From the IMG/VR virus record IMGVR_UViG_3300042328_002052, positions 1-57,886 of that record: DNA of 57,886 nt. One strand, given 5' to 3'. Source of the DNA: a virus (lineage: Duplodnaviria; Caudoviricetes). Below the pieces are notes generated by a model. That model was not told where the DNA came from. It did not search any database and was given only the letters and a program-made list of their open reading frames with translations. Positions 2,074-46,537 of this stretch are shown here, one piece after another. Both the position numbers and the translations under genes were made by a program. The stretch's first letter is position 1. Every line of letters starts with the position of its first letter.

Positions 2074-2268
2074 TTAACGAAATGTATCTTGTTTTGGCTT
2101 GAATCCCGACAAAAGATTGCTTCTTAGATCTGGGGTCGGGGGTGTTCCCTGCTGTAGTGGTGCCATAGGAAGATCTTTGTTCACAAACAGAAGCGGAGAC
2201 GGTTTATTCTTATGCTGATTGTGGACTGCACGAATTGTATCTTCCAAAGATTTTCTTTGATTTCTCAT
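2074..2268 (-). CDS. hypothetical late protein
   Basis: Start MRNQRK at 2268, preceded by GAGGA and a TATAAATA box. Confidence 0.55.
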   Translation of the reverse strand: MRNQRKSLEDTIRAVHNQHKNKPSPLLFVNKDLPMAPLQQGTPPTPDLRSNLLSGFKPKQDTFR

Positions 2269-2290
2269 GATTAAAACTTCCTCAACATTA

Positions 2291-2304
2291 ATATTTATAA
2301 ATAT
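2291..2304. promoter_or_regulatory. palindromic bidirectional T4-type late promoter (ATATTTATAAATAT)
   Basis: Perfect palindrome with TATAAATA on both strands, between divergent genes starting at 2268 (-) and 2309 (+). Confidence 0.65.
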
Positions 2305-2308
2305 TTTC

Positions 2309-2674
2309 ATGAATTATCTTACCAACTATTATAAGAATCTTTGTGAAGATTTGCAAGCAAAAATTGATTTGCTTGAAGCTGGATTAAAGAAAGCTATGAA
2401 AACTAAAGACCCAGAACTTCTCAAAAAGGAAGAATTAAAGGCAGGAGAAAGATGGGAAAGAGCACAAGAAGTAGCTCGCACAGAAGCTGCCAAATCTTTA
2501 GAGGCTACAAGAAGATTTGGTGCAACTAGTAAAGAGGCAGTTGTACCAGCATTCAAATCAGAAATTGCAAGAGGCAAGGCAGAGAGAGTTATGAAAAATA
2601 TTATTGATATCGACCAACAACTAGATGTCGAATCACCGGAAAGAACAATGCACGTCACCCCACAACAATACTGA
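2309..2674 (+). CDS. MNYLTNYY-leader family protein 1 (putative internal head protein)
   Basis: Start MNYLTNYYKNLCEDLQAKIDLLE shared with paralogues; follows a late promoter. Confidence 0.8.
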   Translation: MNYLTNYYKNLCEDLQAKIDLLEAGLKKAMKTKDPELLKKEELKAGERWERAQEVARTEAAKSLEATRRFGATSKEAVVPAFKSEIARGKAERVMKNIIDIDQQLDVESPERTMHVTPQQY

Positions 2675-7565: not shown

Positions 7566-7595
7566 CTCAGAGGCCCCCTTGCGGGGGCCTCTGAG
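7566..7595. terminator. strong hairpin at the left edge of the GC-rich island
   Basis: CTCAGAGGCCCCC-TTGC-GGGGGCCTCTGAG, downstream of the leftward gene 7621-7899. Confidence 0.65.
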
Positions 7596-7620
7596 GGGCT
7601 GGGAGGTTAGGCGGTGGGCT

Positions 7621-7899
7621 TCACATCTCGCCCCATCCCGCGCTCGCTAGCCAGTCGTTGTCCGCGTCCCAGTCCTCGCGGCTCATCCGGCTAGCCGCGT
7701 CGATGAACGCATCGTTGTCCGCCTCGCGGCTCGCCTCCTCAAGGGAGGGCTCCGCGTGTTCCCCTCCCCTGCGCGCCTCGCGCTCGCGCTCGCGCTCCTC
7801 CTCGCACATCGGGCACAGCGAGTCCGTGTAGGCGTACTCGGGGCGGTGGCAGTCGCAGGGGAAGTGTTCGTGTTCGTGGTTGTGGGTGGTGTTGCACAT
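7621..7899 (-). CDS. acidic Cys/His-containing early protein
   Basis: Leaderless ATG 6 nt after TAGAAT; CDC and CPMC motifs; ends DWLASAGWGEM. Confidence 0.7.
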   Translation of the reverse strand: MCNTTHNHEHEHFPCDCHRPEYAYTDSLCPMCEEEREREREARRGGEHAEPSLEEASREADNDAFIDAASRMSREDWDADNDWLASAGWGEM

Positions 7900-12723: not shown

Positions 12724-13233
12724 ATGCCAAACTGGTGCAGCAACAAGATCACGATTCGCGCAGGTGCGGAGACTCGCAAGAAGATCAAGAATCTTCTGTT
12801 GGGAACGGAATACTACCGCCCCTTCAATGTGGTGGAGAAGACTCCCCTGACGAGCAACGAGACTCTGTTCTCGTTTCACAATGTGATCCCGCAGCCCGAC
12901 TGCATCCTTGACCCGGAAGATCCCCGGCGCAAGAGCGACATTCCCCAGAGTGATCCGAAGGGAGCCATGCCGGAGTGGTACTCATGGCGAGTCAACAACT
13001 GGGGAACCAAGTGGTCTGTGTCCGAAGTCCACATGAGCGAGACTGACACCTCCCTCACCTACTGGTTTGAGACTGCATGGGCTCCCCCGGAACCCGTCAT
13101 TCGCAGGTTGTCGGAGATGTTCCCGAACGCCTACATCATCCTCTCGTTTGACGAGCCGGGATGCTTGGGCAAGGGAGCGACCCACTACAAGGACGGTGAA
13201 GTTGTGAAGGAAACCGGAGTGGGTGTTTCCTGA
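12724..13233 (+). CDS. DUF1281/YubB-type ferredoxin-like fold protein
   Basis: MPNWCSN...WYSWRVNNWGTKW...FETAWAPP signature; CTGACA/TATAAT promoter and AAGGAG. Confidence 0.8.
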   Translation: MPNWCSNKITIRAGAETRKKIKNLLLGTEYYRPFNVVEKTPLTSNETLFSFHNVIPQPDCILDPEDPRRKSDIPQSDPKGAMPEWYSWRVNNWGTKWSVSEVHMSETDTSLTYWFETAWAPPEPVIRRLSEMFPNAYIILSFDEPGCLGKGATHYKDGEVVKETGVGVS

Positions 13234-13264
13234 CAAACCCGCGCCCATCGGGTATAATGGGCAA

Positions 13265-13416
13265 AGCCAATGAGCCTAACCGTAATTCCAGTTGGCGTCC
13301 ATAGGACAATGCTTCCCGCAAGGGAGAAACTGGTAGGCGCGGCGAATAGCAGTCAAGTCCCGACTGCCGTATGCAAAGGGTATGCGGGTGGGAACCCGGC
13401 TTCAACAGGGTTCCCA
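13265..13416 (+). ncRNA. unknown structured RNA, copy A (tRNA-Lys leader)
   Basis: Promoter CTGACA(13230)-17-TATAAT(13253); no convincing ORF; several stems; five sequence blocks shared with the tmRNA intervening segment. Confidence 0.65.
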
Positions 13417-13421
13417 AATTC

Positions 13422-13493
13422 GCCTTCGTAGCGCAATGGTAGCGCAGTAGACTTTTAATCTATTGGTTGTGGGTTCAAGTCCCGCCGGAGGCA
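13422..13493 (+). tRNA. tRNA-Lys(UUU)
   Basis: Cloverleaf; anticodon arm GTAGA-CTTTTAA-TCTAT; T-loop TTCAAGT. Confidence 0.93.
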
Positions 13494-13495
13494 TT

Positions 13496-13765
13496 ATGAC
13501 AAACGAAGAGACCATCGAACTTCTCACTGGCGCTTGCCAAGCCTACGACAGACTCTCCATCGTGATGGACCAGATGATGGAGTACTGGTTGGAGGGGCAT
13601 GCGAATCCTCCGAAGGAACTGATCAATGCCTACTACGACGCGAAGGATGACGTAGGCGAACACATCAACACGGGCAGGATCCATGAGATGATCGTCCCAC
13701 GGAATGGCGAATTCTATGAAAAAATAGAATCGCAGTTTGGACTTGACAGGCGACCAAACCTGTGA
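13496..13765 (+). CDS. hypothetical protein
   Basis: MTNEETIELL begins 2 nt after tRNA-Lys. Confidence 0.65.
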   Translation: MTNEETIELLTGACQAYDRLSIVMDQMMEYWLEGHANPPKELINAYYDAKDDVGEHINTGRIHEMIVPRNGEFYEKIESQFGLDRRPNL

Positions 13766-13780
13766 TAGAATCCGATTCAC

Positions 13781-13853
13781 GGCATCGTAGACCAACGGCA
13801 GAGTCAGTTGACTCAAAATCAACAAAGTGTGGGTTCGAATCCCACCGATGCTA
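13781..13853 (+). tRNA. tRNA-Leu(CAA), short variable loop
   Basis: GTTGA-CTCAAAA-TCAAC; TTCGAAT; promoter TTGACA..TAGAAT upstream. Confidence 0.85.
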
Positions 13854-13934: not shown

Positions 13935-14072
13935 CTTGACAAGAAAGGAATAGGTGCTACAATGTGAACCAAGATGATTATATTATAAAAGAGTTTGGTG
14001 GTTTCCGAAGAAACCACACAGAGGCATTCTGTGAATGCACGGTTGGGAACTAGCCGTAAGATTAGCCAATAC

Positions 14073-14302: not shown

Positions 14303-14395
14303 CCCGGACAGGACGGCTTATCGGCCCTCAAAAATATTTCAAAATATTCGCCACCAATTTTTGACTTCCCAAAAGTTTCTGTTACAATGTTCTCC

Positions 14396-26278: not shown

Positions 26279-27136
26279 TTATTTAGAGTTTTTTAAGCTC
26301 AATCTTTCGTCCTGTTTTTGTTTGACATAATCGTTAATTTTATCAAAGTAACCCAAATTTCTGAGTTCCTTGAACACTAAATTTTCTACTGAAAACTCTC
26401 CAGACTTCTTAAGTCCAGCGGATCTCATATTCTTGAACTTCTTCTTCATTTTTTCAAAAGATTCATCATTTGCATTTGAACTTATTAAATTTTCAATCTT
26501 TTGAATATAATCGCTTACTTTGACTTTAATCTCCGGGTCATCAAGGTTTACTTCTTCGTGTCTGGGTTCATTCAGCCACTCGTCTCTGGTAAGACTATAA
26601 GAACCTTGATTTGCCGGTGTTGTCTCTGAAATGTCTTGAGCGTAGATTTCTACATCATGATCAAAAATTTTAATATCGTGTGATTGCGCCCACAACTGCT
26701 TTTTATCTTTCAAAAATTCATCAAGAATGTCAGGGCAATCTGCAATCTTATCTTTATCGACAAGAATGTGGAGATCTATGTCTGAAAATGGTGTGTAGTT
26801 ATAGTTTGCGTTTCCGCCAACTACAATAACATCTTCTATTGAATCTGTGGGAATTTTTGCAAATTTGGCCCAAACATCCGCAATCTGTAATAGTTTATTC
26901 TTTACGTCTTCGCGGAGTTTATTATTTTCCCAAAGCTTTGGATTTAATTCGTTGTGGTATTGCAGTGTAAGAGCTGTAGATTCATTGAAATGTTCTTTAA
27001 AGGTTTTTCTTTCCTTCTTTGAAATTTCAACAGCAGCAAGTTGCTTTACCGCATCTTGCTTGGTCTCATGTGTGCCCAAAACTTTTTTGCCAGATGAATC
27101 TCTGACTTCCCATTTATCACCGCGCTTTACGATCAT
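26279..27136 (-). CDS. Pol-beta-superfamily nucleotidyltransferase
   Basis: GGNANYNY..SDIDLH and DVEIY motifs; internal KTFKEHFNE; TAAATA upstream. Confidence 0.8.
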   Translation of the reverse strand: MIVKRGDKWEVRDSSGKKVLGTHETKQDAVKQLAAVEISKKERKTFKEHFNESTALTLQYHNELNPKLWENNKLREDVKNKLLQIADVWAKFAKIPTDSIEDVIVVGGNANYNYTPFSDIDLHILVDKDKIADCPDILDEFLKDKKQLWAQSHDIKIFDHDVEIYAQDISETTPANQGSYSLTRDEWLNEPRHEEVNLDDPEIKVKVSDYIQKIENLISSNANDESFEKMKKKFKNMRSAGLKKSGEFSVENLVFKELRNLGYFDKINDYVKQKQDERLSLKNSK

Positions 27137-27154
27137 GAAGATATTTATGGCAAT

Positions 27155-27480
27155 AAAAAACCCGGTTTTTCAGATGCGGGAAAACCGGGAAACCCCACTG
27201 CTTTAAGCAGCCATCCGCATTGGTGCGGCTTTTATATTTGCAACTGTTTATTTACGACACTTGTTACCCGTGTCGGGTATCTCCTTCTTCAATACTTTAC
27301 GACAGTCGAAGCCAGTTCAGCCCCTTAATGACCTGAAGCCTAGGACTTCAGGTCGTGCCCCGCTGCTACGAGGACTTGTCTCGCCGTCTCCAGAGGTTGC
27401 AGGGACTCTGGGTTAGGCTAATGGAGCCGAGGGAAATCGAATCCCTGTGTTGCCGTATTTCTATCCAAGATCAACAATAC
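27155..27480 (-). ncRNA. ssrA: circularly permuted (two-piece) tmRNA: acceptor piece about 27480-27422, intervening 27421-27325, coding piece 27324-about 27155
   Basis: The 3' half ACAGGGATTCGATTTCCCTCGGCTCCA lies upstream of the 5' half GGGGCTGAACTGGCTTCGAC. Acceptor stem has G3.U. P2 is TGTCGTA/TACGGCA and pk1 is ACCCG/CGGGT plus CGACAC/GTGTCG. Tag ANIKAAPMRMAA* at 27241-27203. Confidence 0.92.
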
Positions 27481-27493
27481 CAATATTATTTAG

Positions 27494-27575
27494 TGCGAGC
27501 AGGAGGATTCGAACCTTCGTAGGCGATGCCATCTGATTTACAGTCAGACCTCTTTGACCACTTGAGTATACTCGC
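27494..27575 (-). tRNA. tRNA-Tyr(GUA)
   Basis: TCTGA-CTGTAAA-TCAGA; long variable arm; TTCGAAT. Confidence 0.92.
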
Positions 27576-27579
27576 TAAA

Positions 27580-27720
27580 AACGGGCATTGAATCCTTTTT
27601 CCAAGGCCGATCAAGCCTTGGGAAGTATAGTGCTAGCCCTTCGCGTTCTTCTGAGGTATTCGCGCCCCACCTCTGATTGCTGCGGGGTATCAGTTATCCC
27701 TAAGCAGCTTTATAGATTAC
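27580..27720 (-). ncRNA. unknown structured RNA with two putative pseudoknots
   Basis: TTGACT/TATAGT promoter; GCTGC/GCAGC with CTGAT/ATCAG; GAGGT/ACCTC with CGCG/CGCG; CCAAGGC/GCCTTGG hairpin. Confidence 0.5.
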
Positions 27721-27748
27721 AGCCATACTATATATCACAATACCATGG

Positions 27749-45882: not shown

Positions 45883-46537
45883 TTGCTTCCTTATATTTTT
45901 TAATCAGATTGAAAAGATGCTTAACGTAGTGTAAAGGCTTTCCTTGGAAGACTTGCATTATTCCATCTTCGCAAGCAATAATAATTGCAAAATTATCCAC
46001 AACAATGCCTGTTCTTTCTTGGAACATGAGTGCATATGCTGTAGCCTGAGCAAAATAGTTATCGATATCTTCTTTGCGTTTTTCCTTGGTGCTTGCTTTG
46101 AAATCTATTATCGAAAGCTTACCATCATATTCTGCGATACAATCTGTTCTTCCAGCAAGACCTAAAGTCTTGGACCAGAGGGGGGTTTCGATTGCAATTA
46201 TGTTATCAATTTTGTCTATTTCTGGCTTTATCAATGAAAACAAAGATTTTTGCATAGAATGCACTTCATCTAAATTTATGTTTTCATTGTTTATGTAATT
46301 TTCTAGGAGAGAATGAAATTTTGTTCCTCTGGAAGTAACTCTTTTACTTTCCTCTGGATTCTTTGCTCTCCATTGCGAGAAAAATTTTTGTTTTTCAAAA
46401 CCAACAACACTCGTTACACTAGGAAAAACACCGTCTGGAGTTTCATAAAATCTCTTTCCATCGGTGTTTACTTCTTTTAAAGAAGCTTCTATTTTTATTG
46501 GTTTATGATTAAATTTTTTAAAATCGGATAAAGACAT
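45863..46537 (-). CDS. PD-(D/E)XK exonuclease (Cas4/RecB-like)
   Basis: RFYETPDG.FPSVTSV, RGTKFH, AGRTDC, IIDFKAS, QATAYA. Confidence 0.88.
   Translation of the reverse strand: MSLSDFKKFNHKPIKIEASLKEVNTDGKRFYETPDGVFPSVTSVVGFEKQKFFSQWRAKNPEESKRVTSRGTKFHSLLENYINNENINLDEVHSMQKSLFSLIKPEIDKIDNIIAIETPLWSKTLGLAGRTDCIAEYDGKLSIIDFKASTKEKRKEDIDNYFAQATAYALMFQERTGIVVDNFAIIIACEDGIMQVFQGKPLHYVKHLFNLIKKYKEANALPRD

Follow-up and report, generated by a model that had tools for sequence, protein, structure and literature searches.

A structured RNA in the spacer of a permuted phage tmRNA gene, with a probable relative ahead of tRNA-Lys

Introduction

Why should one phage DNA carry the same series of short sequence blocks twice, each time at the edge of a tRNA-like molecule? 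The DNA in question, a window of 57,886 nt (positions 1 to 57,886 of IMG/VR record IMGVR_UViG_3300042328_002052; Duplodnaviria, Caudoviricetes), is a 57.9-kb fragment of an uncultured virus with a completeness estimate of 36%, and it encodes 10 tRNA genes and one permuted transfer-messenger RNA (tmRNA). A sequence-only reading had noticed five blocks recurring in the same order ahead of tRNA-Lys (copy A, plus strand) and ahead of the coding piece of the tmRNA (copy B, minus strand), and had proposed a new ribozyme or a processing or regulatory module for tRNA and tmRNA maturation. The motif is a real, uncatalogued structured RNA; that observation was largely right, and the pairings proposed with it are wrong. 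Copy B is an independently folding RNA of about 66 nt in the excised spacer of the tmRNA gene, and its carriers are one lineage of uncultured aquatic phages.

The Spacer of a Permuted tmRNA Gene

The tmRNA gene is circularly permuted: its acceptor piece lies upstream of its coding piece, and the two are joined by acceptor-stem pairing, GGGGCTG with CGGCTCC, G3-U included. Its parts, in the order of transcription, are as follows.

27422-27481, minus strand: tmRNA acceptor piece (RF04321), with the T-arm and the 3' acceptor strand CGGCTCC; discriminator A at 27422
27325-27421, minus strand: copy B, the 97-nt intervening segment of the two-piece gene
27203-27324, minus strand: tmRNA coding piece (RF04321), from G1 at 27324 and GGGGCTG through the tag reading frame

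The RF04321 model matches 27203-27481 on the minus strand with 63 bits (gathering threshold 47), CCA is absent from the encoded acceptor piece, and the tag given by ARAGORN, read in the near-identical locus L131, is ANIKAAPMRMAA. Processing of the tRNA type removes the intervening segment from a permuted tmRNA (PMC11915505). Copy B is a segment of precisely this kind, as in the permuted tmRNA families RF04321 and RF01849-RF01851, placed between acceptor and coding piece and bounded by discriminator A27422 and G27324. In the Rfam tmRNA models, however, about 27-30 positions of unmodelled loop stand for the segment, whereas copy B has a conserved, pseudoknotted fold. Its five blocks run from 27419 to 27334 on the minus strand. 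That both copies lie directly 5' of a tRNA-like 5' end was noted earlier and holds; what had been missed is that copy B also begins 2 nt after a tRNA-like 3' end, that of the acceptor piece, and so sits between two processing sites, ending 5 nt before the second. Its predicted fold has a minimum free energy (MFE) of -38.8 kcal/mol (z-score -3.15), and none of 200 shuffled sequences folds as well.

A Conserved Core of 66 nt

Relatives of copy B define a core with three helical elements and a loop-loop contact.

27356-27421, minus strand: conserved core, comprising P1, hairpins H1 and H2 and the H1-loop/H2-loop kissing helix
27418-27416 with 27385-27383, minus strand: P1, GCC with GGC
27411-27406 with 27395-27390, minus strand: H1, enclosing the loop TCCCTGCAA
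27402-27399 with 27366-27363, minus strand: 4-bp kissing helix, CTGC with GCAG
27373-27369 with 27362-27358, minus strand: H2, CCTCG with CGGGG

P1 encloses H1, the loops of H1 and H2 kiss, and the blocks TAAC, AGAC, GA..CAAGT and CA stay unpaired. RNAalifold independently recovers P1, H1 and a longer H2 that reaches G27375-C27357 with a bulged U; the outer pair of this extended H2 changes from G-C to A-U in locus L244.

Covariation, counted on 28 unique core variants, supports these helices. Standard pairs fill 96.6% of cells, compared with 90.4% in shuffles (0 of 500 shuffles reach the observed value), and the share drops to 36-59% when partners are slid by 1-3 columns. Both sides change in 7 of the 18 core pairs. 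H1 has five covarying pairs; the closing pair of H2 is found as G-C, G-U, U-A and A-U; and in the kissing helix (CTGY in the H1 loop, RCAG in the H2 loop) a C-G pair has become U-A in L121 and L132 but is still C-G in L127 and L131, their nearest relatives. P1 is inverted from GCC/GGC to GGC/GCC in L244, as read by eye, since MAFFT misaligned this locus. The unpaired nucleotides behave in the opposite way: TAA, the RRAY after H1 (AGAC in the window), GGCGA, CAAGT and the terminal CA are near-invariant. Stem positions and freely varying NN positions stand right beside the fixed blocks GGCGA, AAGT and TAA, which argues for selection beyond the role of a spacer. The core is thus a genuine structured RNA with covarying stems and conserved unpaired blocks, as the sequence-only reading had supposed from two copies.

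An Optional Third Hairpin

The fifth block, GGCTTCA, lies outside the conserved core, in a third hairpin.

27330-27354, minus strand: H3, optional 3' hairpin, GACCTGAAG-T-C CTAG G CTTCAGGTC, containing GGCTTCA

Both sides change in 6 of the 10 H3 pairs, and 9 of 44 motif-bearing loci lack H3 altogether. Its form varies: it is GGAG-T-GC/GCCTCC in L134, is unbulged in L250, and is replaced in L244 by a hairpin of unrelated sequence; AGCC and CAAGTCC are unaltered in L134 and L250. The 3' boundary of the motif is accordingly variable, with H3 present or absent and a tail of 4-8 nt before G1. Two long-range pairings had been proposed for GGCT(T), one with the 5' AGCC and one with the CAAGTCC block in a bulged-U helix reminiscent of P4 of RNase P. 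Because H3 is optional and covaries with itself, at a time when both supposed partners stay unchanged, neither pairing survives. The likeness to P4 is real as far as it goes, in that H3 of most B copies has the bulged-U helix AAG-U-CC/GGCTT; P4, however, is a long-range helix (CR-I/CR-V), whereas H3 is local and dispensable. No RNase P RNA family matches the loci of either copy at an expectation value (E) of up to 10.

Distribution and Exchange of Spacer Contents

Where else does the motif occur? A strict pattern scan of viral contigs returned 26 stretches; 20 proved to be true copies, and each of these lies in the same tmRNA spacer. Covariance model R2 of the B family finds 48 matches in 73 loci (683 kb), one per tmRNA locus, all in the spacer and none elsewhere, and a metagenome scan with the conserved 3' half yields 45 matches, 43 visibly after ...CCATT and two cut by the contig end. 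The strict pattern has no match in 185,579 bacterial and archaeal species (one genome each), and the only similarity in the cultured-phage collection is to the tRNAs. A looser three-block pattern gives at least 120 stretches in viral contigs; among the 121 matches read, only L026 has the flanking blocks, and the rest, G+C-rich coding DNA, were rejected. Every copy found adjoins a tRNA-type processing site. The linkage to tRNAs suggested earlier stands for one phage tmRNA lineage and one tRNA-Lys cassette and fails for tRNAs in general.

A conserved 22-mer of the tmRNA coding piece, used as query, collects 69 loci of this tmRNA lineage, and their spacers fall into distinct classes. The core is accompanied by H3 in 35 and stands alone in nine; 14 have a spacer of just 5-6 nt; six have an unrelated insert of 165-173 nt; three keep a 31-nt remnant of the motif; and two are cut at the locus end. 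The remnant, identical in L270, L275 and L285, consists of the 5' strand of P1, the 5' strand of H1 and its loop, followed by the tail before G1, and is a natural deletion. The 165-173-nt insert (L247, L248, L256, L273, L279 and L287; in L256 within about 2177-2395, minus strand) is itself structured: GGTTAG/CTAACC forms its closing stem, its hairpins show covariation from locus to locus (TTCGATAAGAA versus TCCTGTATAGGA; CTTCGG..CCGAAG versus CTTCAG..CTGAAG), and the L256 copy has no Rfam match at E up to 0.5. Spacer contents differ further afield as well: in the Methylophilales phage Melnitz (MZ577097, about 46079-46219; L343, 1567-1707) the tmRNA spacer is about 140 nt long, AT-rich and unrelated to the motif, and, read by eye, seems to hold a ribosome-binding site and a small open reading frame (ORF). 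Among the contents of individual tmRNA spacers, the accessible part of PMC11915505 names a tRNA-Ala and a repetitive element and no conserved RNA motif. Such differences among loci and in Melnitz mark the spacer as a slot for exchangeable cargo.

These classes bear on one explanation, namely that the motif aids maturation in cis, its fold separating or presenting trailer and leader for RNase Z/BN and RNase P, or shielding the precursor from exonucleases. Geometry speaks for it, every copy being flush with a processing site, the 5' edge keeping a distance of 2 nt from the discriminator throughout the B copies examined, and the structured element always ending 4-8 nt before G1. Yet the motif is dispensable for the tmRNA: with 14 of 69 sister genes making do with 5-6 nt and three with the remnant, it cannot be needed for maturation, which counts against the processing module proposed earlier. 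The other nine tRNAs of the window also lack it, and a mere spacer would not need invariant unpaired nucleotides. A cis-acting maturation aid is thus somewhat doubtful.

Many relatives carry a further conserved stretch of about 100-110 nt ahead of the acceptor piece (L252, about 7573-7685; also L026, L131 and L240), which the window lacks. A 7-bp stem, GCGTAGT/ACTACGC, closes it, and its T-arm-like hairpin, GAGG-TGCAAGT-CCTC, also includes CAAGTCC. Its interpretation, by eye, as a separate tRNA-like element was not adopted; the beta_tmRNA model and the ARAGORN tmRNA calls cover at least part of it.

The Leader of tRNA-Lys

Copy A is a 157-nt structured leader between a promoter and tRNA-Lys.

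13230-13258, plus strand: sigma-70-like promoter of the copy A/tRNA-Lys cassette, CTGACA, 17 nt, TATAAT; 11 of 12 matches
13265-13421, plus strand: copy A
13273-13280, plus strand: block AGCCTAAC, which reads AGCCTGAC in L291
13288-13333, plus strand: enlarged H1, stem CCAGTT/AACTGG, with two sub-hairpins
13297-13307 and 13314-13325, plus strand: the sub-hairpins of H1, GTCC-ATA-GGAC and TCCC-GCAA-GGGA
13340-13388, plus strand: core stretch, with CGGCGA, GCAGT (13349-13353)/ACTGC (13363-13367) around CAAGTCCCG, CGTA/TATG and GCGGG
13368-13371 with 13381-13384, plus strand: CGTA/TATG of the core stretch
13390-13415, plus strand: 3' hairpin, GGGAACCC/GGGTTCCC, its loop holding GGCTTCAACA
13422-13493, plus strand: tRNA-Lys(UUU), 73.4 bits; CCA not encoded

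The blocks follow one another as in copy B, with AGCCTAAC at 13273, CGGCGA at 13340, CAAGTCC at 13354, GCGGG at 13384 and GGCTTCA at 13398, all where they had been placed before, and the element ends 6 nt before the tRNA. The fold has an MFE of -58.9 kcal/mol (z-score -2.6), and the promoter would place the transcript start near 13264-13265. The promoter-like site of tRNA-Leu (13743-13771) ends about 10 nt before its tRNA at 13781, so copy A is an insertion between promoter and tRNA-Lys.

Copy A is found in only three contigs and in two variants: the window, L291 (the contig also designated L133) and L337, truncated at its end. The latter two were found only by the 5' half of tRNA-Lys and an A-specific pattern. 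In both, the cassette is conserved from the -35 hexamer (TTGACA, 17 nt, TACAAT) to the tRNA, and the upstream gene differs. Other approaches brought no further copies. An A-type search with a first gap of 41-71 nt gave five stretches, none A-like; synteny through the upstream protein P0001 gave 80 loci, nine of which were scanned and have no tRNA; among six P0001 relatives with 55-56% identity, L160 and L163 have no leader after the gene; and the second pattern match in each of G001 and G002 is coding DNA.

The two variants differ at eight places within the 157-nt leader. One difference, a 2-nt indel, rules out the overlapping ORF 13270-13431. It accompanies a compensatory change in the first sub-hairpin, from GTCC/GGAC to GCCCC/GGGGC in L291, and U13383 is C in L291, turning a G-U into a G-C pair in the CGTA/TAYG register. 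The 3' hairpin is identical in L291 and gives no covariation evidence; the other pairings of the core stretch, drawn from one sequence, are putative. The pairing can be read in two ways: either local hairpins follow one another in a chain, or the leader folds much as copy B does, with CCCG/CGGG as H2 and GCAGT/ACTGC substituting for the kissing helix. The GCC of AGCCTAAC could pair with the GGC of CGGCGA (13341-13343), as P1 does in copy B, and TCCC-GCAA aligns with the H1 loop of copy B, TCCCTGCAA.

The Probable Kinship of the Two Copies

Are the two copies related, or does copy A merely look like copy B? The pattern CGGCGA..CAAGTCC..GCGGG occurs twice in the window against 0.00 expected, and 0 of 100 shuffles reach two. 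Single blocks are not significant: AGCCTAAC is found twice against 1.25 expected (38 of 100 shuffles reach two), and CAAGTCC 12 times against 7.09. A gap-tolerant local alignment of A and B scores 51.75, above all 1000 dinucleotide shuffles of A (mean 26.5, standard deviation 4.5, maximum 46) and above all 1428 other 157-nt windows of the same DNA (maximum 44.75), so the repeat exceeds chance, as first supposed. Against the 47 unique spacer variants copy A scores 27.5-57.75, 23 of them exceeding 46; it thus resembles the B family and not only the copy in its own genome. Exact-word chains depend on word length: with words of at least 7 the A-B score of 23 is not exceptional (33 of 22546 overlapping windows score 24-25), and with words of at least 6 it is 34 against a background maximum of 29.

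Profiles take the other side. The B-family covariance models R1 and R2, run with filters off and E up to 10, have no match at 13265-13421; R2 has none on the A copies of L291 and L337; and an nhmmer profile of the B family (E up to 1000) does not report copy A. On balance the sequence comparisons make it quite likely that A and B are kin, copy A probably being a diverged, expanded relative of the tmRNA-spacer motif.

The sceptical alternative is an inert insertion, a stable hairpin-rich sequence kept by descent, with copy A a chance look-alike. It can point to the dispensability of the motif, to its confinement to one lineage, with no match in the surveyed species' genomes or the cultured-phage collection, and to the blindness of the B profiles to copy A. 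It is nonetheless very improbable, as it must contend with four helices kept by compensatory changes, with invariant unpaired blocks, and with a copy A that is the top-scoring stretch of the 57.9 kb, adjoins a tRNA and scores 27.5-57.75 across the unique spacers, beyond the one in its own genome.

Genes and Promoters around the Two Copies

The 3' end of tRNA-Lys supplies a GGAGG, part of its 3' acceptor strand (CCGGAGGCA; window 13484-13498), directly ahead of the ATG (13496) of an 89-aa ORF at 13496-13765, so that tRNA and ORF overlap functionally on one transcript. Near-consensus sigma-70-like promoters, with 10-11 of 12 matches and a TG extension, stand at 13743-13771 before tRNA-Leu, at 13936-13963 in the gap between tRNA-Arg and tRNA-Ile, and at 14361-14388 at the start of an AAA_5 ATPase gene. 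The tRNA cluster seems to be made up of small separate units.

On the other strand, a tRNA-Tyr gene precedes the tmRNA directly, and the two probably share a transcript.

27754-27727, minus strand: promoter-like site ahead of tRNA-Tyr and the tmRNA
27493-27575, minus strand: tRNA-Tyr

Between this site and tRNA-Tyr lie about 145 nt (window 27576-27726, minus strand) with several hairpins, such as CCAAGGC-TTGATCG-GCCTTGG, which may be another structured leader before a tRNA. Directly after the tmRNA comes a gene (26279-27136, minus strand) whose product weakly matches the nucleotidyltransferase family NTP_transf_2 (E 0.0003) and falls in phrog_36119, among the PHROG families without known function. 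Its relatives occur in 15 of 78 loci and stand directly after the tmRNA in about nine of those; with adjacency in about 9 of 78 loci, support for a link to the motif was too thin and the idea was dropped.

Comparison with Known RNAs

Does the motif belong to a known class of RNA? All 4227 families of Rfam 15 were compared by cmscan with 13200-13500 and 27150-27600 at E up to 10, and with the loci of four relatives at E up to 0.5; no family fits the motif in either set, so the earlier description of it as unrecognised survives the check. At these thresholds twister, twister-sister, pistol, hatchet, hammerhead and hairpin ribozymes are all missing from the matches, as are riboswitch aptamer families. 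GCCTAAC may resemble a twister sequence, and GGCGA the J4/2 sequence of the hepatitis delta virus (HDV) ribozyme. Literature searches turned up no conserved RNA in a tmRNA spacer and no motif of this kind, within papers that are not searchable by sequence and with supplements excluded.

Theta ribozymes, HDV-like RNAs located behind phage tRNAs (PMC10879173), are the nearest precedent for a new small self-cleaving ribozyme that would free the 3' end of the tmRNA acceptor piece or trim the tRNA-Lys leader. Like them, copy B is small, pseudoknotted and phage-borne and starts directly after a tRNA-like 3' end, here 2 nt behind one that lacks CCA; invariant junction and internal-loop nucleotides at a place of RNA cutting fit as well. 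The topology differs, however. The covarying helices, P1 around H1, the H1/H2 kissing helix and H2, do not form the nested double pseudoknot of HDV-like and theta ribozymes, hand threading onto that fold was rejected as the strand order does not fit, and no HDV-type or other ribozyme family matches. Copy A, moreover, is preceded by a promoter rather than a tRNA, and host enzymes suffice in the short-spacer relatives. Weaker evidence comes from RNA libraries: in four of 22 RNA runs, examined as contigs, contigs from two (X3 and X6) cross the spacer and both its junctions uncut, representing unprocessed precursor at most and possibly DNA. A new ribozyme class is therefore rather improbable.

Because copy A stands between a promoter and the first gene, as riboswitches do, the motif might instead be a sensor, either of the riboswitch kind or one that binds a protein or tRNA, and so gate tmRNA and tRNA-Lys processing. 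Defence nucleases target tRNA-Lys, and both RNAs would matter when host defence cuts tRNA-Lys and ribosomes stall. A competing pairing can be drawn in copy A, CCCGC (13316-13320) with GCGGG (13384-13388). There is also a parallel in Melnitz, whose permuted tmRNA is adjoined by a glutamine riboswitch (PMC9004378); there, too, an aquatic T4-like phage has a structured accessory RNA within the transcription unit of its tmRNA. That riboswitch (RF01739, 52.8 bits) is of another family and in another place, about 50 nt downstream of the tmRNA and outside the spacer, and RF01739 does not match the window copies. No known aptamer family does, and an expression platform is wanting: neither copy is followed by a T-run after its 3' hairpin or by a terminator-like site on its own strand, a tRNA-like 5' end following instead. 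A sensor is improbable.

A Possible Passenger in tRNA-Processing Slots

What, then, might the motif do? An exchangeable slot, a dispensable motif and conserved unpaired nucleotides together favour, if tentatively, a passenger small RNA that is released by tRNA-processing enzymes and acts through a bound partner; this is possible rather than probable. The RNA would sit in slots that owe their ends to the tRNA-maturation enzymes of the host. RNase P would cut the tmRNA coding piece or tRNA-Lys at G1, RNase Z/BN or another 3'-end enzyme would cut after the discriminator of the CCA-less acceptor piece, and the 5' end of copy A would be the transcription start. A discrete small RNA of about 70-160 nt would thereby be released, and its conserved unpaired nucleotides might bind a partner (protein, RNA or small molecule) for the phage's benefit, trans action being a guess. 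Release is deduced from textbook tRNA and tmRNA processing applied to the anatomy of the genes. The variable 3' boundary of the motif fits an end set by RNase P and not by the motif itself.

Small RNAs cut from tRNA transcripts have precedents in the E. coli 3'ETS-leuZ spacer RNA and the stable RNAs called 'species 1 and 2' from the T4 tRNA cluster, non-tRNA RNAs whose ends come from tRNA-processing enzymes. To our knowledge, these share no sequence or fold with the motif, for which release is deduced.

Several points weigh against a released passenger. No processed ends are seen, and the X3 and X6 contigs bridge the junctions, as precursor or contaminating DNA. A free-standing motif gene was never found, 48 of 48 R2 matches and 43 of 45 metagenome matches lying in the tmRNA spacer; nor do five short-spacer phage contigs, only 20-42% complete, hold a motif copy elsewhere. 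That every B copy starts 2 nt behind the discriminator might reflect coupling, in cis, with the formation of the 3' end. The membership of copy A follows from one kind of alignment, to which the profiles are contrary, and the partner is hypothetical.

Implications

Until now the spacers of permuted tmRNAs have passed for disposable loops. In one phage lineage, conserved structured RNAs occupy this slot, at least two of them unrelated, and one of these has a well-supported pseudoknotted fold, invariant unpaired nucleotides, no catalogued relative and, probably, a second home in a tRNA-Lys leader. It offers a 66-nt candidate for a new ribozyme, aptamer or protein-binding RNA, together with natural deletion and replacement variants. 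It is unlikely that a new RNA class, be it a self-cleaving ribozyme or a processing-gating sensor, has its catalytic or ligand-sensing centre in this core; if so, phages would insert the core at tRNA-type processing sites to time the activity of tmRNA and tRNA-Lys(UUU), for example in countering host nucleases that cut tRNA-Lys and stall ribosomes. Even if the motif is only a passenger, it would show that phages can produce small RNAs by way of tRNA-processing slots.

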